64,000 nt of DNA, taken from NCBI GenBank assembly GCA_964455195.1, contig CAYVUY010000001.1:3642-67641 (forward strand), written 5' to 3'. The stretch comes from an uncultured Candidatus Saccharibacteria bacterium (GTDB taxonomy: Bacteria; Patescibacteriota; Minisyncoccia; Phycocordibacterales; UBA5272). Shown piece by piece: positions 293 through 35,794 of the stretch (position 1 is the stretch's first letter; every line of letters begins with the position of its first letter). Position numbers and translations under genes: made by a program. Under the pieces are notes generated by a model. It had not been told where the DNA came from and searched no databases. It saw nothing but the letters and a program-made list of their open reading frames with translations.

Positions 293-1504
293 TTAGAGCT
301 TATTTCGTAATAGTTTGTGATAGGTAATTGCAAAGCGATGAGCCTCAGAGTTAGCCAAAAGTATTTCCTTTTTATGGTAATCCACATGCTCTTTTCTACC
401 GAGGATGTCCTTTGGTTTATGTCTCTCATCTTTCACCACAGAAACGCATGGAATGAGCACTCCGGCTTCCGCAAGTAAAGCTTCACCTGTTTGCTTATGG
501 GCTAATCCCCCATCAAAAACGATAAGGTCTGGATATCTCCACTCCGTATGCATGAGTCGTCTTCGAAGCACTTCACGCAATCCTTCATAATCATCATTTA
601 CTTTTTCTGTGAGCTTAAATTTACGGTATTCATCTTTATTTTTATCTCCTCCTTCTATAACGGTCATAACCCCCACACGATGAGATCCTGAGATATGCGC
701 TACGTCATAAGCCTCTATTCTGAAATCTGTCTTTTTAAAAGACACGATATCATCATGTGTTATAAGGCTTGTGTCCTTTATATGCTCAATTGCAAAAAGT
801 GTATTCCTTATATGTGCAGCTTTTTCGAACATCTCCTTCTTAGCATATTCTTTCATTTCTTTTTCAAGGGAGCGCTTGATATCCTCCTTTTTACCATCGA
901 AGAATCTTCGTATGTTAGCGATGTTTTTCTTATAGTCTGTTTGTGATATAGCGCCAGTACACACCCCTGGGCAAAGCTTAATCTGAGCGTTGAAACAAGC
1001 CTTACCTTGATTAGGTTCACAGCTGTCTCGGAATGGAAACATCTTACGAATTATCTTAAGCGCAGAGCGTAACTGTGTACCAGAAGCGAATGGTCCATAC
1101 ACTGCGAGTACCCCTTTCTTTTGGTACTTCTTCTCGAAATCTCGCACACGTACAAGAAGCACTCTTGGATATGGTTCCTTGGTTATCACTACACACACGT
1201 AACTACGATTATCCTTTTCTTTGGTGTTATAAACCGGCGCATGTTTCTTAATGAGAGTGTTTTCAAGTAAAAGTGCCTCCAAGACACTCCCTGTTTCTTG
1301 GAAGGTTACCGTCTCTGCGATGGTTACCATACTTACTACTTTCAACCCTCGTGTTTGGATGAGATCTGGACTGAAATAGCTCTTCACTCTGTCATATAAA
1401 GAAGTGGCTTTTCCTATATAAAGAATGTTGCCCTCCTTGTCACGAAAAAAATAAACCCCTGGGGTTTCTGGTAATCCACATTTTGCTAGGTCTTGCTTTT
1501 TCAC
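293..1504 (-). CDS. uvrC: Excinuclease ABC subunit C, compact form. Has GIY-YIG, Cys motif, UVR domain and RNase H-like endonuclease domain. Lacks the C-terminal (HhH)2.
   Basis: N-terminal PGVYFFRDKEGNILYIGKA (GIY-YIG). UVR-like EKEMKEYAKKEMFEKAAHIRNTLFAIE. IEAYDVAHISGSH...DDYEGLREVLRRR...EAHRFAITYH (C-terminal endonuclease domain). GTG start. Confidence 0.9.
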   Translation of the reverse strand: MKKQDLAKCGLPETPGVYFFRDKEGNILYIGKATSLYDRVKSYFSPDLIQTRGLKVVSMVTIAETVTFQETGSVLEALLLENTLIKKHAPVYNTKEKDNRSYVCVVITKEPYPRVLLVRVRDFEKKYQKKGVLAVYGPFASGTQLRSALKIIRKMFPFRDSCEPNQGKACFNAQIKLCPGVCTGAISQTDYKKNIANIRRFFDGKKEDIKRSLEKEMKEYAKKEMFEKAAHIRNTLFAIEHIKDTSLITHDDIVSFKKTDFRIEAYDVAHISGSHRVGVMTVIEGGDKNKDEYRKFKLTEKVNDDYEGLREVLRRRLMHTEWRYPDLIVFDGGLAHKQTGEALLAEAGVLIPCVSVVKDERHKPKDILGRKEHVDYHKKEILLANSEAHRFAITYHKLLRNKL

Positions 1505-1532
1505 TGGATGTATTGTACTATAAATTCTCGCT

Positions 1533-1575
1533 TTAGCAATTTGTCAGTCCCTCCAAAAGACTGTTACATTGCTAA
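1533..1575. promoter_or_regulatory. Inverted repeat with nested hairpin just upstream of the uvrC promoter/start. Arms are TTAGCAAT ... ATTGCTAA.
   Basis: Perfect 8-bp arms at 1533-1540 and 1568-1575. Inner cagtc/gactg hairpin at 1545-1563. Located -30 to -70 relative to the uvrC GTG start on the minus strand. Confidence 0.3.
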
Positions 1576-1626
1576 GACGAAAAGGGTGTAGTTCATTATA
1601 AAACCTTTCGAAAAGAAGGAAAAAAG

Positions 1627-2091
1627 ATGTCGAAAAAAAGGAGTGGCAACCAAACGGGTAGTGGTCTTGGCCTAATCGGCCGTATCTCACACCGGGACCT
1701 CCTGGGTCTCGCAGGTGAGTGCATGACTGTCATTGGCCGTCCGGTGAGTTCGCCAGTTGCGAAGCATTCTGCTGTTCTGGATATTTGTATTTCTCCAGAG
1801 GGTATCAACGTCAAGCGCGGCGGAAAGTCGCTCTCGAAAGAAAAGTTGAGCCCTTCTCAGTTTCGGCATATTGTCGACTCTGGAAAACGTCGGGGTATCA
1901 TCGGATTCAGCGAGGTGGTTCATCTCAAGGAATTCGAGGTCGTTGTGAAAACAACGGTAAAGAACCCGACACGCAAAGAAATGGGCATCCTCGATGTGCT
2001 GGATGTCCTCGACGGCAAAATCAAACTGCCAAAAAAGGCAAAGATCGTCGAAGAAGCGCCGACAAAAAACACTGTCGCTGCGGCTGCATAA
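1627..2091 (+). CDS. Hypothetical protein, 154 aa, encoded in a strongly GC-enriched islet. Coding status uncertain; could alternatively be structured RNA.
   Basis: RBS-like GAAGGA 6 nt before the ATG. Ends at a strong tandem-hairpin terminator. Local GC is far above flanks, and long ORFs are open in several frames (typical of GC-rich DNA), so ORF length alone is weak evidence. Confidence 0.35.
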   Translation: MSKKRSGNQTGSGLGLIGRISHRDLLGLAGECMTVIGRPVSSPVAKHSAVLDICISPEGINVKRGGKSLSKEKLSPSQFRHIVDSGKRRGIIGFSEVVHLKEFEVVVKTTVKNPTRKEMGILDVLDVLDGKIKLPKKAKIVEEAPTKNTVAAAA

Positions 2092-2104
2092 GCCAAAGCA
2101 AATT

Positions 2105-2148
2105 TTCGTGGAACTATTCCACGAAAAGGCGTCCCAAGGGACGCCTTT
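2105..2148. terminator. Tandem hairpins forming a bidirectional intrinsic terminator between the GC-rich ORF and uvrA.
   Basis: cgtggaa-cta-ttccacg followed by aaaaggcgtccc-aa-gggacgcctttt. A-tract and T-tract on either side. Confidence 0.7.
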
Positions 2149-2187
2149 TCTACTGCTTGAGTGGACCTTAGTATGTCGTGAAAATAT

Positions 2188-4842
2188 TTATTTATTCTTA
2201 CTATTATCCTTATGTCTCTTTAAAACTTTTTTAAGATACTGACCAGTGTATGAATTAGGATTAGACGCTACTTGTTCTGGAGTACCTGTAGCGATAACCT
2301 TACCACCTCCCACTCCTCCTTCTGGTCCGATATCGATGACGTGGTCCGCATTCTTCACAATATCTAAGTTGTGTTCGATAAGAACCACAGTGTTCCCCTT
2401 ATCTACAAGACGGTTCAGAATTTCAATAAGTTTAACAATATCATCATAGTGAAGTCCGATAGATGGCTCATCGAGAAGATAAATAGTTTTTTCTACATGA
2501 GGACGATACAACTCTGAAGAAATTTTCACACGCTGTGCTTCTCCACCTGATAAGGTAGTTGCAGACTGACCAAGCTCCAAATACGTAAGCCCTACATCAG
2601 AAAGAGTCTTAATACGATCATACACTGCTGGAATATCAATAAAGAATGTAAGAGCCTCCTCTACTGTCATGTGAAGTACATCATTGATGTTCTTACCTTT
2701 GTACTTTACTTCAAGTGTTTCTTTCATGAAGCGCTTACCACCACATACGTCACACTGCACATACACAGTAGGCAGGAAGTGCATTTCAACTGCAATCTCA
2801 CCATTACCTTGGCAAGCTTCGCAGCGACCACCTTTCACATTAAAAGAAAATCTCGATGGCTTCCAACCACGAATACGAGCTTCTTCAGAAGATGCGAAGA
2901 GGTCACGAATATGAGTCCACGCACCAGTATATGTCGCAGGATTAGAACGTGGGGTACGACCGATAGCTGACTGATCAATCATCACTACACGAGAGACATA
3001 CTCCGTACCCGTGAAGTCTTCTACATTAAATAACTTAGCAGTTCTATGACGACGCTCTAAACGTGCGAGTAAGTTACGATGAAGAATCTCATACATAAAA
3101 GAACTCTTCCCTGATCCTGACACTCCAGTTATCACATTGAATCGTCCGAGTGGTACCGAAACATTCATATTCTTAATATTAAAAACGTTTCCATTCTTCA
3201 CGCGTAGTGTTCCTTTGTCATCTTGGCGACGTGCTGGTACTCCGATTTCCTTTTCACCACGAAGATACGCGAGTGTCGCACTTTCTGATTTATTACGTGG
3301 AGCAGAAAGGAGATCCTCGAGATACCCAGAGACAACAACTTCACCACCGTGGACTCCGGCTTTCGGACCAATATCTACGATGAAATCACTTGCGAAAATA
3401 GTATCTTCGTCATGCTCTACGATGATAATGGTATTACCCATATCCCGAAGATGAAGTAATGTCTTAATGAGTCTGTCATTATCACGCTGATGAAGTCCAA
3501 TAGTCGGTTCATCGAGTACGTAGAGTGCTCCTACTAATTTAGAACCAAGTTGTGATGCTAGACGTATACGTTGTGCTTCTCCACCTGAAAGAGTGTCTGC
3601 CTTACGATTAAGTGAGAGATAATCAAGTCCAACATCTAACATGAAAATAAGACGCGATTCAATTTCTTTAATTACTACAGATGCAATTTCTTGGTCTTTC
3701 TTAGAAAGCGGAAGACGCTCGAAATAATTCTGCGCATCACGAATAGAGAGTGCTGTAATATCTACGATATTAATCTTCTCGTGATCATCGAGATACACAG
3801 TAAGAGCTTCCTTACGAAGACGCTTACCTCCACAATCCTCACACTCGTCGAGTCCACCGAAGTATTTAGTTCCGAGTCCATTACATGTAGGACATGCTCC
3901 ATATGGTGAGTTGAAAGAAAAGAGTCGAGGTTCTATTTCTGGGAATGAAAAGCCGCAATTCGCACATGCGAACTTACTACTCATAATGAATTTCTCTCCG
4001 AGAATTTCTATTTCTACCAACCCCTCTGCTTCGTGCATAGCACGTTCTACAGATTCAGAAAGACGCATCATGGCATCCTTTTGTTTTTCTTTATTCTTAT
4101 CAGTTCCTAAATGACGGAAATCATCGATGGCGATAGAATCAACAACGAATGATATTTCGTGTTGTTTAGTTTTTGAAAGTTCGATACGCTCACGAAGTGA
4201 TTTACGCTCCCCGTCGATGACTGCTTCGGTAAATCCTTTACCTAACATATCATAGAGTAGTTGATAGTACTCCCCTTTACGGCCACGTACCACAGGTGAA
4301 AGAATGTGCACTTCTTCGTGAGAAAATTGCACTCCCATTAATTCTTTTTTTACTTTACTGTAATCAATCTTTTTTACTTTATCAGTAATGAAAGCAATAA
4401 TTTCTTCGTTGGAAAGTTTCTGAATTTTGTGACCACATTCTGTACAGTATGGCTTACCTACACGAGCATAGAGCACACGAAGATAGTCATATATTTCTGT
4501 AATAGTAGCAACAGTAGATCGAGGGTTACGCCCAGCTGACTTTTGATCAATAGAAATAGCAGGAGAAAGACCGACGATTTCATCGACGTCTGGTTTTTGC
4601 ATTTGATTAAGGAATTGACGAGCGTATGCAGAAAGAGATTCTACGTAACGACGTTGCCCTTCTGCGAAGATAGTATCGAATGCAAGAGATGACTTCCCTG
4701 AACCGGAAAGACCTGTGAATACAATCATCTTGTGACGAGGCATTTCTACCGTAATATTCTTCAAATTATGCGTTCTAGCGCCACGAACAATGATGTTGGA
4801 TAACGCTAAATCCTTCCCTGGGGTTTTGGAGTCTTTTTTCAT
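2188..4842 (-). CDS. uvrA: Excinuclease ABC subunit A
   Basis: 884 aa. Duplicated ABC ATPase motifs (GLSGSGKSSLAFDT, LSGGEAQRIRLA twice). Zn-finger Cys pairs (CTECGHK, CANCGFSF, CEACQGNG, CDVCGGKR). Confidence 0.95.
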   Translation of the reverse strand: MKKDSKTPGKDLALSNIIVRGARTHNLKNITVEMPRHKMIVFTGLSGSGKSSLAFDTIFAEGQRRYVESLSAYARQFLNQMQKPDVDEIVGLSPAISIDQKSAGRNPRSTVATITEIYDYLRVLYARVGKPYCTECGHKIQKLSNEEIIAFITDKVKKIDYSKVKKELMGVQFSHEEVHILSPVVRGRKGEYYQLLYDMLGKGFTEAVIDGERKSLRERIELSKTKQHEISFVVDSIAIDDFRHLGTDKNKEKQKDAMMRLSESVERAMHEAEGLVEIEILGEKFIMSSKFACANCGFSFPEIEPRLFSFNSPYGACPTCNGLGTKYFGGLDECEDCGGKRLRKEALTVYLDDHEKINIVDITALSIRDAQNYFERLPLSKKDQEIASVVIKEIESRLIFMLDVGLDYLSLNRKADTLSGGEAQRIRLASQLGSKLVGALYVLDEPTIGLHQRDNDRLIKTLLHLRDMGNTIIIVEHDEDTIFASDFIVDIGPKAGVHGGEVVVSGYLEDLLSAPRNKSESATLAYLRGEKEIGVPARRQDDKGTLRVKNGNVFNIKNMNVSVPLGRFNVITGVSGSGKSSFMYEILHRNLLARLERRHRTAKLFNVEDFTGTEYVSRVVMIDQSAIGRTPRSNPATYTGAWTHIRDLFASSEEARIRGWKPSRFSFNVKGGRCEACQGNGEIAVEMHFLPTVYVQCDVCGGKRFMKETLEVKYKGKNINDVLHMTVEEALTFFIDIPAVYDRIKTLSDVGLTYLELGQSATTLSGGEAQRVKISSELYRPHVEKTIYLLDEPSIGLHYDDIVKLIEILNRLVDKGNTVVLIEHNLDIVKNADHVIDIGPEGGVGGGKVIATGTPEQVASNPNSYTGQYLKKVLKRHKDNSKNK

Positions 4843-4875
4843 ATCAATTCGTTATTATACCACAAAAAATAGGGT

Positions 4876-4893
4876 TTTGTTTAGCAAAACAAA
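4876..4893. promoter_or_regulatory. Palindrome TTTGTTT-agca-AAACAAA overlapping the -35 region of the uvrA promoter. Candidate operator.
   Basis: 7-bp arms with 4-nt spacer. On the uvrA strand it sits about 20 nt upstream of an extended -10 (TGGTATAAT) that lies 12 nt before the ATG. Confidence 0.35.
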
Positions 4894-5022
4894 CCTATAT
4901 TTTTGCGGTGCAAGAGTACTTGGTTTTTATGATTTCATGAAATAAAAACCTTAGTACTAGTTGCAATAAATTAAAGTTATTCATCTTTATGTTATAGTGT
5001 CGAATCTTTAACACAAATCAAT

Positions 5023-5040
5023 TTTGTTTAGAAAAACAAA
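5023..5040. promoter_or_regulatory. Second copy of the same palindrome (TTTGTTT-agaa-AAACAAA), about 150 bp further upstream of uvrA.
   Basis: 24-nt block ttttgtttag(c/a)aaaacaaacctaat is near-identical to the copy at 4875-4897. Confidence 0.3.
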
Positions 5041-5050
5041 CCTAATAAAA

Positions 5051-5088
5051 AACAAAAATCACACACTTTTAAGTGTGTGATTTTTGTT
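5051..5088. terminator. Long A/T-armed hairpin terminator
   Basis: aacaaaaatcacacactt-ttaa-gtgtgtgatttttgtt. Downstream of the minus-strand gene ending at 5106. Confidence 0.6.
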
Positions 5089-5105
5089 AGAATAAAAACA
5101 TTATA

Positions 5106-5648
5106 TTAATCCACCTTAAGTGTATTGAAGATATTCTTCACTGCGTCAGCATCTGCCTTTTTTGATTCCACCATCATGAGCCATTCACCACCTTTCAAAG
5201 TAGCAATGTTCCATTCCATGGTATTAGATTCAACATGATACCAATCATAACTTCCCATATGTACTGTACTTGTAGAAGTTAGCACTGGAACCTTAGGAGC
5301 AATAATAGAATCAAAATATTGTTCTGGTGTCCATGCACGAATTCCTTCGTAACTAAAATACGCTAGAGCTTTCTGAGAATCATCAGCTCCTTTAACAACT
5401 ACAGTTTGAGAGTCATCTCCTTTTGATGAAGTCATTCCCTCTGGGACATAAAACTTATAAGAAAGAAAATTCTGTCCCTCTGCCATCTGTGCTGTAGCCC
5501 CACTTACTTCTACCATTCCAGAAACATCCTGCTTATTTCCCATCATCTCACTGCCACTATCTGAGTGAGAAAAAAGGTATGCTCCAACCGCCACAAGAAT
5601 TACTGCTAATATCACCACCCACGTAACTACTGAATTTTTTGATTGCAT
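5106..5648 (-). CDS. Hypothetical membrane-anchored secreted protein
   Basis: Start taken at MQSKNSVVTWVVILAVILVAVGAYLF (single N-terminal TM). The longer track ORF (to 6074) would overlap the uvrB 3' end and a plus-strand gene. Confidence 0.5.
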   Translation of the reverse strand: MQSKNSVVTWVVILAVILVAVGAYLFSHSDSGSEMMGNKQDVSGMVEVSGATAQMAEGQNFLSYKFYVPEGMTSSKGDDSQTVVVKGADDSQKALAYFSYEGIRAWTPEQYFDSIIAPKVPVLTSTSTVHMGSYDWYHVESNTMEWNIATLKGGEWLMMVESKKADADAVKNIFNTLKVD

Positions 5649-5771
5649 AATAGGGATAGTATATTCCTCTAAAATAGGAATGTAAAATACCCCTAAAATT
5701 TGACAAAAGCCTAAAAAATCAGTAGATTTACAATTGAAGTTTATTTCTATCAGCACCCCAAGGAGAGCTAC

Positions 5772-6029
5772 ATGAGCGCAAGCGATGTGCCTGTCATTTG
5801 TACCCACTGCAAAGGTGAAACACAGTTCATGAAAGAAGTGTCCGGGAATGATTCTATCCAGTACTACTTCTTTTGCCCTTGCAAAAAAACCCCACGCTAC
5901 GGCTCTTTTATGAAGGCAGAAGCAATGTGGGAAACTCATTGGTACAAAATAAAACCAGAAGATATGCCCCCATTCGAAGAAATGGAACCAGCGAGGAGAG
6001 CTGGTTACACTGGGATGGTAGGGAACTGA
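5772..6029 (+). CDS. Small zinc-ribbon-like protein, 85 aa
   Basis: AAGGAG RBS 7 nt upstream of the ATG. CTHC ... CPC cysteine pairs. Followed by a GC hairpin terminator. Confidence 0.5.
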   Translation: MSASDVPVICTHCKGETQFMKEVSGNDSIQYYFFCPCKKTPRYGSFMKAEAMWETHWYKIKPEDMPPFEEMEPARRAGYTGMVGN

Positions 6030-6030
6030 A

Positions 6031-6057
6031 ATGGGGGCGTCCAAAAGACGCCCCCAT
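6031..6057. terminator. Bidirectional intrinsic terminator serving uvrB and the small zinc-ribbon gene
   Basis: atgggggcgtc-caaaa-gacgcccccat. Confidence 0.7.
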
Positions 6058-6063
6058 AACTTT

Positions 6064-8160
6064 TTACACATCATCCTCTCCTATTTCTACATTAGTCTCT
6101 ACATTCTTTAACCCCTCTTCTTCATTTTTAAGAGCTCTTCCTTTCAAAACTTTTATTTCATCACGAAGTATTGCAGCAGTTTCGAAATCAAGTGCCTTCA
6201 CTGCTTCTTTCATTTGTTTTTCTTTCAACTTAATTAATTTAGTTGGATTTTTTGCAAATAACTTTTGATCCACTTCAAGTTCTGTCGACACTGCTTTATC
6301 GTGATCACTTGCTATACCTTCTGTAATATCTTGTATGCTCTTTGAAATAGTAATCGGAGTGATGTTGTGTTCTTTGTTATATGCTTCTTGTAATGCGCGT
6401 CGTCGATTGGTCTCACCTATTGCACGCTCAAGTGAACCTGTCATCTGATCTGCATATAAAATAACTCTTCCCTTAGCATTACGTGCTGCACGACCGATAG
6501 TTTGAATAAGCGATGTTTCACTTCGAAGGAATCCTTCTTTATCAGCATCAAGTATCCCAATAAGTGTTACTTCTGGTAGGTCTAATCCTTCACGGAGCAA
6601 GTTAACTCCCACAAGACAATCGAATTCTCCTTTTCGGAATCGAGTAAGAATTTGAATACGTTCAATGGTTTTAATATCACTATGTAAATACTCTGCCTTA
6701 ATACCTTCCCCACGAAGATACTCGGAAAGAGACTCTGCCATTTTCTTGGTGAGTGTTGTTGCTAGTATTCTTCCACCTGCTTTTGTATCTTTAATTGTTT
6801 CTTGTATAAAATCATATACTTGACCCTTATATGCACCCTTTTCTAACACTGGTCGAACGAAGAGTTGCGGGTCGAGCAATCCTGTCGGACGAATAATCTG
6901 CTCCACCACTTGTTCCCCTTCTGTGCGCTCATACTCACCTGGAGTAGCAGAAACATACACAACCTGACCAATACGCTCTTCGAATTCTTCATAACGTAGT
7001 GGGCGGTTATCTTTCGCTGATGGAAGACGGAATCCGTATTCGACGAGTGTCTGCTTGCGAGACTGATCTCCTGCATACATACCGTGTAATTGTGGAAGTG
7101 TTACGTGTGACTCATCTATCACAGTTAAGAAATCCTGTGTTCCGTCTGGAAGTTTAGGAAAATATTCAATAAGTGTATCCGGTGCAACCCCTGGTGCTTT
7201 ACCTGATAAGTGTCTTGAGTAGTTTTCGATTCCTTGGCAGAATCCCATTTCTCTAATCATCGCTATGTCATAACGAGTACGACGCTTAAGGCGCTCTACT
7301 TCTAGAATCTTACCTTCCTTTTCTAATTCTGCGAGACGTTCTTTAAGTTCCTTCTCTATAGTTTTCACAGCTCGTTCACGTGTTGGAATATCAGAAATGA
7401 AGTGCTTTGCTGGGAAAATAAAATAATCATCTACTTCTTTTAGAATGCGCATAGATACTGGGTCAGTCACAATCAGTGAAGAAATACTGTTACCTGCTAT
7501 TTCTATTTGAAGCATTACTGTTTCTGATATAGGCATAATATCTATTCTGTTACCTATCGCACGGAATGTTCCTGGTGAAAGATCAGCGGTAGTTCTTTCA
7601 TATTGAATATTTACGAAACGTTGCATGAGCTCTGCCTTTGATGCAGGGTCTCCCACTGAGAGTTTAATATTCTCTCTTTCGTAATCAGCTGGTGACCCGA
7701 GACCATAAATACATGATACAGATGCGACGATAATAACATCACGACGTGTGAGAAGCGCTTGAGTAGAAGCGTGACGAAGACGATCAATTTCTTCATTAAT
7801 CTGAGCGTCTTTCTCTATATAGGTATCCGTCACTGGCATGTATGCCTCTGGCTGATAGTAGTCGTAATACGATACGAAGTAATGCACCGCCGCATCAGGA
7901 AAGAATGAACGGAATTCTTGTGCGAGTTGTGCAGCGAGAGTTTTGTTGTGAGCTATAACAAGAGTTGGCTTTTGAATTTCATTAATAACACTAGCCATAG
8001 TGAATGTCTTCCCTGTTCCGGTAGCACCAAGTAATGTCTGCTTACGCATACCTTTATTAAGCCCTGCCACGAGAGCTTTAATTGCTTTGGGTTGATCTCC
8101 TGCTGGAGTAAATCCTTTTAGAACGAATGTTCCCTCACCTCTTTTGTTCTTGCTTGACAT
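6064..8160 (-). CDS. uvrB: Excinuclease ABC subunit B
   Basis: 698 aa. Helicase motifs GATGTGKTFTMA, DESH. C-terminal UVR domain ALDFETAAILRDEI. Confidence 0.95.
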   Translation of the reverse strand: MSSKNKRGEGTFVLKGFTPAGDQPKAIKALVAGLNKGMRKQTLLGATGTGKTFTMASVINEIQKPTLVIAHNKTLAAQLAQEFRSFFPDAAVHYFVSYYDYYQPEAYMPVTDTYIEKDAQINEEIDRLRHASTQALLTRRDVIIVASVSCIYGLGSPADYERENIKLSVGDPASKAELMQRFVNIQYERTTADLSPGTFRAIGNRIDIMPISETVMLQIEIAGNSISSLIVTDPVSMRILKEVDDYFIFPAKHFISDIPTRERAVKTIEKELKERLAELEKEGKILEVERLKRRTRYDIAMIREMGFCQGIENYSRHLSGKAPGVAPDTLIEYFPKLPDGTQDFLTVIDESHVTLPQLHGMYAGDQSRKQTLVEYGFRLPSAKDNRPLRYEEFEERIGQVVYVSATPGEYERTEGEQVVEQIIRPTGLLDPQLFVRPVLEKGAYKGQVYDFIQETIKDTKAGGRILATTLTKKMAESLSEYLRGEGIKAEYLHSDIKTIERIQILTRFRKGEFDCLVGVNLLREGLDLPEVTLIGILDADKEGFLRSETSLIQTIGRAARNAKGRVILYADQMTGSLERAIGETNRRRALQEAYNKEHNITPITISKSIQDITEGIASDHDKAVSTELEVDQKLFAKNPTKLIKLKEKQMKEAVKALDFETAAILRDEIKVLKGRALKNEEEGLKNVETNVEIGEDDV

Positions 8161-8238
8161 AGTCGATTATTGATTATAGCATAAAATCGAACATCAACCA
8201 CTTTAGTCAACAACGATACACAAGAAAAGGAGCCTTAC

Positions 8239-8613
8239 ATGTCTTCCCCTGAAACGTTGCAAGACCTCGCAGTCACGCATCGCCTCGTGTCAACACCGGA
8301 TGATTTGAAAATCATCGCGACCCTCATCAATGAGCGCGTCGATAACGGTGTCTACGCCTACGAGAAAGGACGAGAGAAGCTGATAGATGCTCATGAGTAC
8401 ATCACGAGCCCTGTCTACTTCGAAGCTCGCCACGGACAAGTTCGTCTCTACGGACGCGTTCGGCAAAGCGGGAAAGTGTGGGGGATCAGCATCGCTGGAA
8501 CCCCAACAGCCCCAGTCATCAACGTGTTCGCACGTGGACATGAAGGAAACCCTGTGCAGTCGGTTGATTTTGCAATTTACATACCGAAATGGTACGAAAA
8601 AAGTCACGGGTGA
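8239..8613 (+). CDS. Hypothetical protein, first gene of a GC-rich three-gene operon
   Basis: AAGGAG RBS. GC content clearly above flanking genes. Confidence 0.5.
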   Translation: MSSPETLQDLAVTHRLVSTPDDLKIIATLINERVDNGVYAYEKGREKLIDAHEYITSPVYFEARHGQVRLYGRVRQSGKVWGISIAGTPTAPVINVFARGHEGNPVQSVDFAIYIPKWYEKSHG

Positions 8614-8657
8614 AGTGCACAGTACCTTAACACAACCAACACTTACTTGGAGGGTCT

Positions 8658-8993
8658 ATGGATACACAAGAACATAGCGACGACCCTCGAAGGGTCTGTC
8701 TGCCGAGCAAGGGTGCACTCCTCCTTCGCGCATTAAGCGATGGGGATACGCGCATCTATATCAAACTGCAAGACCTTGGAAAGGATTCAACTGAACTGTT
8801 AGAGTTTTACAAAGTTGGTTTGCCCCCATTTGATTTATCACGTAGGGGCGGAGCACTGTTACTGACATGTTCAGAGCCGGGGAATCCTAACAAACGCAAA
8901 AACCTGCAACTAATCAATGACACCATTGTTGATGAGTCTGGACGCACCCCGAAGACGTATTCGGTCATCATGCCGAGGTGGCTTCATGACTAA
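8658..8993 (+). CDS. Hypothetical protein, GC-rich operon gene 2
   Basis: Same strand and composition as its neighbours. Its stop overlaps the next start (ATGACTAA). Confidence 0.5.
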   Translation: MDTQEHSDDPRRVCLPSKGALLLRALSDGDTRIYIKLQDLGKDSTELLEFYKVGLPPFDLSRRGGALLLTCSEPGNPNKRKNLQLINDTIVDESGRTPKTYSVIMPRWLHD

Positions 8994-9423
8994 CATCGAC
9001 CCGTATGATGTCGGTCCGTTCGGTGAGCCGGACTTTGACTACATTGATTTTTTGGAACAGGTACACGACTTCGATGAGTACTCATTTTTCTATGAGGACC
9101 TGGATTACGAAGAAGTACTCAAGCTCTGTGGTATTGTTGAATACGACCTTCATCCTTTCTATGAGGACACATCACTTTACCAAAGAACGATTCTTTCTGA
9201 TCAGGAATTCCTAACGACCGATAACGTATGGCGTATAAGGACCGCCAAAGAAAAGCATGTAGGAAGAAGTGAACGTCAAAAGGCAACGGAGATTCTGCAA
9301 TCCCTCCGTGAAGAAAACCCAGCGACACAAAGTACTGACGAGTGGCTGCACTCTTTTGAAGTTGGAACACGCTGTTACGAAATATTGCAAGCCCCATTGG
9401 GGAAACTGAAACCACGCCTATGA
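8986..9423 (+). CDS. Hypothetical strongly acidic protein (aromatic and D/E-rich N-terminal half), GC-rich operon gene 3
   Basis: ATGA overlap coupling with the upstream gene. N-terminus MTNIDPYDVGPFGEPDFDYIDFLEQVHDFDEYSFFYEDLDYEE. Confidence 0.5.
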   Translation: MTNIDPYDVGPFGEPDFDYIDFLEQVHDFDEYSFFYEDLDYEEVLKLCGIVEYDLHPFYEDTSLYQRTILSDQEFLTTDNVWRIRTAKEKHVGRSERQKATEILQSLREENPATQSTDEWLHSFEVGTRCYEILQAPLGKLKPRL

Positions 9424-9447
9424 GAACGAAGATTCTCGGGCGGGTTT

Positions 9448-10701
9448 TTATTTTTTATAATATCTTTCGATAAAATTATTTTTGAATTTTAAAAAGTTAC
9501 CTTCGATGAGAGCTTGTCGTGCATTCTCCACTAATGTAGTGATAAATTTAAGATTATGAAGTGATGCGATAGTGGCTCCTGTCATTTCATCAGAACGGAA
9601 TAAATGTGCGAGATAGCTCTTCGTATACTGATGTGTGTACCATGTAGGTTCATCTGATACTGGCGTCATATCTTCTTTGTACTTTGCATTGAATATATTG
9701 ATACGACCATCAAGAGTATAGAGTCCACCATTACGCGCAATACGTGTCGGAGCAACACAGTCGAAGGTATCTATTCCATTTTCTATTCCAAGTAAAATAT
9801 CTAACGGTTCTCCAATGCCAAGTAGGTGACGAGGTTTACCTTCTGGTAGAATTTCATTCACCCATCTCACAGCTGTACCCATATCTTCTTTTGTAAAACT
9901 TCCCCCTATTCCATATCCATCGAAATCCATAGCACCTAGAATTCTAGCTGATTCCTTGCGTAAATCTTCATATGCTCCACCTTGCACAACTCCAAAAAGT
10001 GCTTGCATTTCTCCAGTAGCTTGTGATACTCCGAGGCGCTTATGTTCTCTTAAACTGCGCTCTGCCCAGCTATGGGTTCTGTCTATTGCTTTTAATTGAT
10101 ACTCCTTCGGAGCTAGTGGTGAGGTACATTCATCAAATGCAAAAAACATATCCGCGCCCAAGTTGTGCTGTATCTGCATACTGCGCTCTGGTGTGAAGCG
10201 ATGCTCACTCCCATCAATAATAGATTTAAACGTCACACCTTCATCATCTATTACCGCTAACTTCTCATGTGCATTCGTTGTTTCCTTTTTCTCACGCTTG
10301 GAAATATCTTGTGTTTCTAATTCTGATATTTCTTTACTTGTTGCAATCTTACTTACACCATGCCCCATAGCTTGTCCTAAAGAAAATACTTGGAAGCCTC
10401 CTGAATCAGTAAATGTTGGACCATTCCATCCCATCATCTTGGCGAATCCTCCGTGCTTTGCTACAAGCTCATCTCCTGGTTCAAGATAAAGATGATATGT
10501 ATTTGCAAGCACTGCTTCTGCACCTACATAATCACGTACTTGTTCTGGGGTAAGTGACTTCACTGTGGCTTTCGTACCTACTGTAATAAATGCTGGAGTT
10601 TTAATATCACCATGTGGAGTATGGATAACGCCCGCACGCGCCAAAGGCGCTTCAGAAGACTTTTTTACTATTTCAAAATTAAATATTTTATTCATTTTCA
10701 A
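9448..10701 (-). CDS. tgt: Queuine tRNA-ribosyltransferase (tRNA-guanine transglycosylase), with an internal insertion
   Basis: LARAGVIHTPHGDIKTPAFITVGTKA ... FTDSGGFQVFSL ... C-terminal Zn-site-like CVAPTRIARNG. Confidence 0.9.
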   Translation of the reverse strand: MKMNKIFNFEIVKKSSEAPLARAGVIHTPHGDIKTPAFITVGTKATVKSLTPEQVRDYVGAEAVLANTYHLYLEPGDELVAKHGGFAKMMGWNGPTFTDSGGFQVFSLGQAMGHGVSKIATSKEISELETQDISKREKKETTNAHEKLAVIDDEGVTFKSIIDGSEHRFTPERSMQIQHNLGADMFFAFDECTSPLAPKEYQLKAIDRTHSWAERSLREHKRLGVSQATGEMQALFGVVQGGAYEDLRKESARILGAMDFDGYGIGGSFTKEDMGTAVRWVNEILPEGKPRHLLGIGEPLDILLGIENGIDTFDCVAPTRIARNGGLYTLDGRINIFNAKYKEDMTPVSDEPTWYTHQYTKSYLAHLFRSDEMTGATIASLHNLKFITTLVENARQALIEGNFLKFKNNFIERYYKK

Positions 10702-35506: not shown

Positions 35507-35794
35507 ATGGCACTACGCCGATTGAAAGGGGTAAACATCAGTCATCAAGGAGCAGCGGAAGCGAACATGCACTCGAGCAAACCAGTCTACGCGCTGGCTC
35601 CGGGCCAAATCACGATTGTTTCGGTGCTTGGCGATGAAATCGCCGAAGCGATGGTCCAGGAGCATCAATCAAACATCGAAAGGCGGATTGCTGCCGGAGA
35701 CGAAAATGTCGAACGGCTCATGACTATCGCCTGCGAAGTCATCGAAACTCACGCAAGTCATGAAGACCGTCAGGACTTCGACGACAGGCGCTAA
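35507..35794 (+). CDS. Small hypothetical protein, 95 aa. GC-rich, with codon usage unlike neighbouring genes.
   Basis: AAGGAG RBS 8 nt upstream of the ATG. Consensus promoter upstream. GC-rich terminator downstream. Acidic C-terminus. Confidence 0.55.
   Translation: MALRRLKGVNISHQGAAEANMHSSKPVYALAPGQITIVSVLGDEIAEAMVQEHQSNIERRIAAGDENVERLMTIACEVIETHASHEDRQDFDDRR

Follow-up and report, generated by a model that had tools for sequence, protein, structure and literature searches.

The 64,000-nucleotide stretch analysed here, referred to throughout as the window, is part of contig CAYVUY010000001.1 (assembly GCA_964455195.1) of an uncultured Candidatus Saccharibacteria bacterium. Between uvrB and tgt, it contains a gap of 1,287 bp that is filled by three + strand open reading frames (ORFs), ORF1, ORF2 and ORF3 (Table 1). 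A preliminary description of this DNA, made from the sequence, had placed three same-strand genes here, and their coordinates and the Pfam assignments of the flanking genes agree with that layout. A Shine-Dalgarno-like (SD) site can be read at a workable spacing before each of the three start codons. The longest version of ORF3 begins at 8917; the ATG at 8986 is preferred because GAGGTGG lies upstream of it, the shorter relatives have matching N termini, and an independent gene call, on Logan contig L087, also uses this overlapping start. ORF2 and ORF3 therefore share 8 nt, ATGACTAA, at the position first described, and the arrangement suits coupled translation as had been proposed, but the overlap is not the 4-nt ATGA with a TGA stop that was originally read.

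Same-strand ORFs of at least 100 amino acids (aa) occupy 88.7% of the gap, as compared with a mean of 14.7% and a maximum of 78.5% in 2,000 dinucleotide-preserving shuffles. A host codon model, built from 34 long genes of the window, ranks the annotated frame first of six for all three ORFs, with scores per codon of -0.03, -0.18 and 0.03 for ORF1, ORF2 and ORF3, respectively, versus 0.31±0.11 for host genes, the low scores being due to atypical codon usage. The GC contents of 0.52, 0.49 and 0.45 lie above the gene mean of 0.392±0.025, and the GC content at third codon positions (GC3; Table 1) exceeds that of host genes (0.29±0.05) by +0.16 to +0.27, equivalent to 3.5-5.8 standard deviations. 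The edges of this excess are sharp, with GC3 values of 0.30 in the first 50 codons of uvrB and 0.17 in the last block of tgt, and recombination tracts extending into the flanks were not seen, GC3 being host-like at the 5′-end of uvrB as well as at the 3′-end of tgt. Misassembly is ruled out because Logan contigs from two other sequencing runs, SRR13208889 and SRR13208906, are exact substrings of the window (7809-9153 and 8687-9845, respectively) that together span both junctions. From the SD sites, best-frame scores and ORF tiling, and from the protein-level relatives of ORF3 and, weakly, of ORF1 described below, all three genes look real, in line with the coding potential and the GC-rich, foreign composition noted initially, the latter being clearly atypical relative to host genes.

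ORF3, which begins MTNIDPYDVGPFGE, has the acidic, aromatic-rich N-terminal half that was first reported, and the stretch quoted at that time is exact. Residues 1-66 include 19 D/E (29%), 1 K/R and 15 F/Y/W, with a net charge of -18, the C-terminal 79 residues are close to neutral, and the protein as a whole has an isoelectric point (pI) of 4.4. After the acidic half come a conserved core, YQRTILSDQEFLTTDNVWRIR, a linker of basic character and, C-terminally, a helical hairpin that contains QSTDEW. When 1.84 billion representative sequences were searched with HMMER, only three remote relatives of ORF3 were found, P0004, P0005 and P0006, and a pattern scan of JGI metagenomes added one further locus (Table 1). 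Together these constitute family Y, which is defined by the core [FY][EQ]RT[ILV][LV]xD[QED]E[FLI]x[TN][TA]DxxWR[VI][KR], by QSxD[ED]W and by an upstream acidic helix that ends in CG[ILMV]; the corresponding sequences in ORF3 are YQRTILSDQEFLTTDNVWRIR, QSTDEW and LDYEEVLKLCGI. The common features of the family are one or two copies of the acidic, CG-ending helix motif (DPFExhDxxxLLxxCG in the relatives and YEDLDYEEVLKLCGI in ORF3), the core FERTLLSDQEFxTTDWxWRVK, a basic serine-rich linker, QSxDEW and a basic C terminus. There are 19 invariant columns (M1, D16, D21, D28, D40, C48, G49, R67, T68, S71, D72, E74, D79, R83, Q115, S116, D118, W120 and R144) in an alignment of four sequences, designated A1, and 12 (D8, R67, T68, D72, E74, D79, R83, Q115, S116, D118, W120 and R144) in alignment A2, which has five.

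Family Y identities range from 31 to 56%, versus 81-89% for UvrB and 80-85% for Tgt across the same genomes, and ORF3 is 31-37% identical to its relatives across species, the window being an outlier for both family Y and UvrB. The conservation of ORF3 at the level of motifs argues for purifying selection on the protein. In the window and in relatives L085, L024 and L082, the family Y gene adjoins uvrB on the opposite strand. In L085, a metagenome-assembled genome from New Zealand groundwater, the gene for P0004 points away from uvrB, and a membrane ORF of 239 aa comes after it. As judged from these sequences, the pattern fits vertical descent with the locus accompanied by fast divergence. A conserved housekeeping factor, which the preliminary description had named as the outcome that would speak against its reading of ORF3, is not what was found, as family Y is tiny and fast-evolving.

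Several further observations were made on ORF3 and its relatives. At aligned N-terminal positions (residues ~17-22), P0005 has QLDLF and P0004 has QTDLF, and in both proteins the acidic DPFE...CG helix motif also occurs a second time. Within ORF3, a 13-nt sequence, TTTCTATGAGGAC, is repeated exactly and in direct orientation at 9087-9099 and 9156-9168, so that FYED is encoded twice, 23 codons apart; this repeat may be a trace of an internal duplication of the acidic motif. The family Y gene is followed by a gene for a homologous multi-pass membrane protein in L085 (4422-5141, 239 aa) and L086 (777-1514, 245 aa), and there is no such gene in the window; the L085 membrane protein has only a sub-threshold, DctQ-like Pfam match. 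The L-x-x-C-G sequence of family Y was considered as a lipobox and rejected, there being no n- or h-region of a signal peptide upstream.

An AlphaFold2 model of ORF3, generated with an alignment of four sequences, has a mean predicted local distance difference test score (pLDDT) of 56.8 and a predicted template modelling score of 0.29. Only the C-terminal helical hairpin (residues 91-135) reaches a pLDDT of ~80. Over most of residues 1-92 the value is <50, with residues 6-7, 21-25, 37-48 and 72-77 as exceptions, and by a charge-hydropathy calculation, too, the acidic half falls on the disordered side. Based on these predictions, the acidic half of ORF3 looks disordered, and with a pLDDT of <50 there is no rigid, DNA-like surface to inspect. 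Comparison of the model with the PDB by Foldseek gave a best E value of 4.5, which is meaningless at this model quality.

A search for Tgt among GTDB species representatives yielded 80 loci, all in Patescibacteria (Paceibacterota, Nomurabacteria, Yonathbacteria and similar), the best matches being 80-82% identical, which places the window in a genome of the Paceibacteria type; tgt followed on the same strand by uvrB is retained in >60 of these loci. Ten of the more distant relatives (Tgt 59-65% identical) have tgt and uvrB directly side by side, at a spacing of -29 to 58 bp. Members of the near clade, with Tgt identities of 72-82%, invariably have a gap of 144 bp or more, up to 7 kb. All-against-all BLAST places the ORFs within this gap in many tiny, unrelated clusters, and at least 22 of 33 near relatives have an antisense ORF here with two to five predicted transmembrane helices. 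The genomic GC content of the relatives ranges from 0.33 to 0.57, and GC3 is also raised in the slot genes of L024, L085 and L003, less so than in the cassette. No integrase, tRNA or convincing flanking repeat is present in the slot, the repeat matches being short, imperfect and chance-like, and the 1.3-kb insert is itself too small to hold an integrase. On these comparisons, the tgt-uvrB gap is a hypervariable slot, apparently opened in one Paceibacteria subclade, in which the cassette is antisense to both neighbours.

Examples of the antisense transmembrane ORFs are those of L002 (11295-11648), L016 (11297-11710) and L029 (11389-11940), all of which are divergent from uvrB and have little mutual similarity. 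Small, poorly conserved membrane proteins beside SOS genes are reminiscent of SOS-induced division inhibitors. Three relatives have a 6.4-7 kb insert in the slot (L004, 11233-18090; L005, 11205-18225; L026, 11300-17730) with four co-directional genes, one of which is a repetitive ORF of 1,079-1,202 aa.

Some of the soluble slot proteins also appear to be related to each other. Those of L003, L011, L023 and L027, each ~110-135 aa in length, are taken as family X, in which the two tandem paralogues of L003 connect onward to the slot ORFs of the other three loci (Smith-Waterman z 7.3 for L003b and L011, and 13 for L011 and L023). Among 6,366 ORFs of the related loci, the best non-self match of ORF1 is a slot ORF of L003 with a phmmer E value of 0.75. 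The pairing of ORF1 with L003a has a Smith-Waterman z of 6.2, none of 400 shuffles reaching the score, and an hhalign E value of 1.7e-4 with a probability of 49%. By sequence comparison, this slot-associated family is probable but weak, and ORF1 may be a weak member of it. ORF2 has no relative among the same 6,366 ORFs and finds only itself in the database search. With a Smith-Waterman z of at most 1.9 against all family X members, it is not a member on this evidence. Paralogy of ORF1 and ORF2, suggested by the similar look of their C-terminal hhYIPKW and VIMPRW sequences, was rejected (Smith-Waterman z 0.75, hhalign E 0.35).

Table 1. Features of the uvrB-tgt region and of the family Y relatives. 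Positions are those of the window unless a relative is named.
Feature	Position	Strand	Length	Properties
uvrB	6064-8160	-		Left edge of the slot; Pfam UvrB, UvrB_inter, Helicase_C, UVR
Promoter-like TTGACA-17 nt-TAGCAT	8154-8182	+		Consensus scan, 10/12 matches; -35 overlaps the first uvrB codons
Candidate extended -10, TGCTATAAT	8173-8181	-		12 nt before the uvrB ATG; overlaps the putative -10 of the cassette; read from the sequence
ORF1	8239-8613	+	124 aa	pI 7.0; soluble; GC3 0.56; SD AAGGAG; weak candidate member of family X
ORF2	8658-8993	+	111 aa	pI 6.7; GC3 0.49; SD GGAGGG; singleton
ORF2/ORF3 overlap	8986-8993	+	8 nt	ORF3 ATG 8986-8988, ORF2 TAA 8991-8993; GAGGTGG upstream
ORF3	8986-9423	+	145 aa	pI 4.4; GC3 0.45; SD GAGGTGG; member of family Y
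Weak hairpin GAGAA...TTCTC with T-rich run	9422-9455	+		Found by eye; overlaps the 3′-end of convergent tgt
tgt (queuine tRNA-ribosyltransferase)	9448-10701	-		Right edge of the slot; Pfam TGT, E 8e-125
P0004	L085 3463-4290		275 aa	HMMER E 1.4e-6; between uvrB and tgt
P0005	L024 12172-12891	-	239 aa	HMMER E 9.3e-5; between uvrB and tgt
P0006	L082		152 aa	HMMER E 5.2e-4; adjoins a uvrB 5′-fragment
L086				Additional family Y locus from the JGI metagenome pattern scan; contig too short to show whether uvrB adjoins

The promoter-like TTGACA-17-TAGCAT sequence upstream of ORF1 could function as the promoter of the cassette, and the same TTGACA-N17-TAGCAT arrangement is readable 5′ of the ORF3 relative in L082. 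The block GATTATAGCATAAAAT is common to the window and L085, and ATTATAGCATAAAAT is common to the window and L082. With the extended -10 sequence on the opposite strand, the putative uvrB and cassette promoters would be divergent and face-to-face, and so may compete or be co-regulated. The uvrB gene has a perfect extended -10 sequence, TGCTATAAT, and lacks an SD site, and the surrounding block lies at 8161-8238 in the window, 3412-3462 in L085 and ~330-390 in L082. As this -10 sequence is only 12 nt from the ATG and there is no SD site, a nearly leaderless uvrB mRNA is suggested. No LexA-type palindrome is obvious by eye in the uvrB-ORF1 spacer, for which no systematic search was made. At the other end of the cassette, the 9422-9455 hairpin is tentatively a terminator; a terminator scan found none and this hairpin did not pass.

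The three proteins were compared with profile and sequence databases, and no known family was recognised by the profile searches that the preliminary description had suggested as a check. Pfam (threshold E 1), run on the three proteins and on every member of alignments A2 and A3, gave nothing above noise, the one match being to YfdX (E 0.25). The PHROGs matches all had E values of at least 0.12, which is noise level, NCBIfam gave nothing above noise for ORF1, ORF2 and ORF3, and no PADLOC defence family reached an E value of 1 or below for any of them. A profile search of the PDB with A2 returned nothing below E 0.33, and one with A3 also found nothing. In a k-mer-seeded search of 5.8 billion proteins each ORF found only itself, the clusters being singletons. 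No match to the proteins or the DNA was obtained by tblastn and blastn in 50,697 phage (INPHARED) and 72,556 plasmid (PLSDB) records, and pattern scans of IMG/VR gave none for ORF1, ORF2 or ORF3. As to the presence of the operon in related genomes, also to be checked, relatives of ORF3 occupy the same slot where both flanks are visible, the slot ORFs related to ORF1 are so only weakly, and ORF2 has no relative.

The window has two other islets of this type. A second antisense orphan ORF of 154 aa, with a GC3 of 0.54, lies at 1627-2091 (+) between uvrC (293-1504, -) and uvrA (2188-4842, -), and has no Pfam match and no relative among the 85 related loci. In relatives, the uvrA-uvrC gap is maintained at 400-650 bp, with an elevated GC content in the near clade, and its ORFs have no detectable similarity to the 154-aa ORF, a repeat of the pattern seen in the tgt-uvrB slot. 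The third islet is a 95-aa ORF at 35507-35794 (+) with a GC3 of 0.57, for which no Pfam family reaches the cutoff; the 375-bp segment that holds it ranks among the most GC-rich of the window. The genes that flank the first two islets belong to one co-directional - strand cluster (293-10701) that consists of tgt, uvrB, a gene for a conserved 179-aa small protein (5106-5645), uvrA and uvrC, an order kept in many Paceibacteria relatives.

On balance, we consider it somewhat probable that the three genes are a real orphan cassette, restricted to this lineage and located in a hypervariable slot, and that the cassette arrived probably by exchange among related genomes and not from a phage or plasmid. 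The phage or plasmid origin put forward in the preliminary description finds no counterpart in the searches, which were empty; the relatives of ORF3 are chromosomal and beside uvrB, and the cassette is GC-richer than its host. In a large study of orphan genes in prokaryotes (PMC11293555), those of phage origin mostly had a lower GC content than their hosts, whereas rare orphans were GC-richer and had poorer codon adaptation; the cassette resembles the rare orphans rather than the phage-derived ones. Given the synteny and the sharp GC3 excess, the most economical reading is that the cassette was swapped in from a related, GC-richer Paceibacteria genome, which would have occurred via recombination in the conserved flanks. 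Transcription would then probably begin at the promoter interleaved face-to-face with that of uvrB, ORF1 would be translated from its own SD site, and ORF2 and ORF3 would be coupled through the 8-nt overlap. ORF3 would be acidic and for the most part disordered, engaging a partner protein via the conserved acidic amphipathic-helix motif YEDLDYEEVLKLCGI and the FERTLLSDQEF-TTD-W-WRVK core.

Several points weigh against parts of this account. No donor genome was found for the cassette. With approximately six members of family Y known, the synteny could reflect repeated insertion at a hotspot and not descent, and ORF3 has a GC3 (0.45) well in excess of the 0.32 of its L085 and L024 relatives, so a simple vertical history needs an extra exchange step. 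The links of ORF1 to family X are weak (phmmer E 0.75, hhalign probability 49%), neither ORF2 nor the L011 group nor the L030 ORFs were recovered with a merged family X profile, and ORF2, having no relative, could be a young or non-functional ORF. The low-confidence AlphaFold2 model, made with four sequences, does not prove disorder. Partner binding, which is suggested only by composition and motif conservation, is a step of low confidence.

Some or all of the ORFs, ORF2 above all, might instead be young proto-genes or non-functional ORFs that exist as there are fewer stop codons in GC-richer sequence. ORF2 is a singleton, the host-codon scores of all three are low (-0.03, -0.18 and 0.03 vs 0.31±0.11), the other GC-rich islets of the window also contain orphan ORFs, and orphans are in general more disordered with fewer optimal codons (PMC11293555). 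We regard this as unlikely for the cassette, as all three ORFs have SD sites, two are coupled by an overlap, the ORF tiling was unmatched in 2,000 shuffles, ORF3 is conserved at the level of motifs at 31-37% identity across species, and ORF1 has weak protein-level relatives.

The preliminary description had proposed that ORF3 is a DNA mimic, an Ocr/ArdA-like anti-restriction protein or an inhibitor of a DNA-binding enzyme, encoded on a module acquired from a phage or plasmid. Its composition fits (pI 4.4, with 29% D/E and a net charge of -18 in residues 1-66), the codon usage of the cassette is atypical, and rapid divergence of family Y would suit an arms race. Mimics are defined by a structure of suitable shape on which negative charges are arrayed as in DNA, and the class is so divergent in sequence that homology searches cannot exclude membership (PMC3902945). 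In ORF3, however, such an array is not visible, the acidic half having a pLDDT of <50 and being predicted to be disordered, and Foldseek found nothing in the PDB with an E value below 4.5. There is also no Pfam match to Ocr or ArdA, no PHROG above noise and no relative in phages, plasmids or IMG/VR, the relatives of ORF3 are chromosomal and syntenic, and a GC content above that of the host is contrary to the trend for phage orphans. A location on a mobile element is typical of anti-restriction mimics, but not of every mimic. The resemblance of ORF3 to mimics is confined to its composition, and these results neither support mimicry as such nor speak decisively against it. All considered, ORF3 is improbable as an acquired mimic.

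It is likewise doubtful that family Y modulates replication or repair in co-regulation with uvrB, docking on the beta sliding clamp or another repair protein. In the window, L085 and L082 alike, the family Y gene is divergent from uvrB and the promoter elements of the two overlap, which would suit such a role, as would the location of the window locus within the tgt-uvrB-uvrA-uvrC cluster. The beta-clamp-binding consensus is Q-L-x-L-F (PMC4549789); QLDLF of P0005 is a full and QTDLF of P0004 a partial match to it. The motif is, however, short, weak and present in these two sequences only, ORF3 of the window and P0006 have neither the N-terminal extension nor the motif, and the position may mean nothing, as unrelated membrane ORFs occupy the same slot in most relatives.

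A toxin-antitoxin or toxin-immunity pair, with ORF3 as an acidic, partly disordered neutraliser coupled to its partner ORF2, is very unlikely. The 8-nt overlap suggests stoichiometric co-production, and proteins of 111 and 145 aa with an acidic disordered partner resemble many antitoxins and immunity proteins, but the reading fails because the pair is not conserved, family Y having no relative of ORF2 nearby in L085, L024, L082 or L086; ORF2 has no toxin-like signature, and there was no match in PADLOC, Pfam or NCBIfam. GC-rich islands in AT-rich genomes are often RNA genes, and minimum free energy z-scores of -1.7 for ORF1 and -2.0 for ORF2 (+ strand) hint at structure, but a structured non-coding RNA in place of proteins can hardly be the explanation, as the z-scores are weak (-2.0 to +0.7; +0.2 for ORF3), Rfam recognises only a tRNA-Trp in the whole window, and protein-level conservation and ORF integrity favour coding.

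As an orphan cassette, the locus has a more general bearing. Patescibacteria have small genomes and yet many unexplained small genes, and here one real cluster of these occupies a recurrently rewritten slot, with ORF3, an apparent orphan in the k-mer-seeded search, belonging to a tiny syntenic family. The slot, the two candidate families and their conserved motifs provide a handle on how accessory genes are gained and exchanged in ultra-small bacteria. It would be a long shot that family Y consists of undescribed, fast-evolving acidic decoys that bind a DNA-handling protein, with a promoter interlocked with that of uvrB and a slot dedicated to swapping modulators. The long forms would engage the sliding clamp with their QLDLF-type motif, or the acidic helix motif would bind an enzyme of repair or restriction; the decoys would thereby adjust repair or replication, or shield DNA that passes from cell to cell. 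A demonstration that ORF3 acts as a decoy on a DNA-handling enzyme would make it the first of its kind to be described in this phylum. At present, this is a documented orphan cassette and not a new mechanism.

Comparison with known systems leads to the same assignment. Like the DNA mimics T7 Ocr, ArdA, DMP12/DMP19 and SAUGI, ORF3 is small, has a low pI and a D/E-rich half with interspersed aromatic residues, and belongs to an extremely divergent group of sequences. Unlike them, it has no profile or fold match, its acidic half is predicted to be disordered and not a rigid scaffold, its C-terminal half is neutral to basic, and its gene occupies a syntenic position on the chromosome instead of belonging to a phage or conjugative element. 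With the beta-clamp binders Hda, Pol IV and transposases, family Y shares the QLDLF or QTDLF sequence near the N terminus of P0005 and P0004, whereas ORF3 has no QLxLF motif and there is no other similarity to known clamp partners. Type II antitoxins and the immunity proteins of polymorphic toxins are, as is ORF3, small, acidic, partly disordered and coupled to a small upstream ORF, but the partner of ORF3 is not conserved, and no DNA-binding or toxin domain is recognisable. The lineage-specific orphans of variable hotspots (PMC11293555) are the closest parallel, being short and without homologues outside a narrow lineage, with atypical codons, higher predicted disorder, a tendency to raised GC content in rare orphans and no viral matches. 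The cassette differs from these in that its slot, bounded by tgt and uvrB and antisense to the two genes, is well defined, its GC3 excess is large, and family Y recurs in the slot in five to six genomes. The cassette is therefore most aptly classed among lineage-restricted orphan genes that occupy a variable slot of the chromosome, and two small, undescribed families are associated with it.

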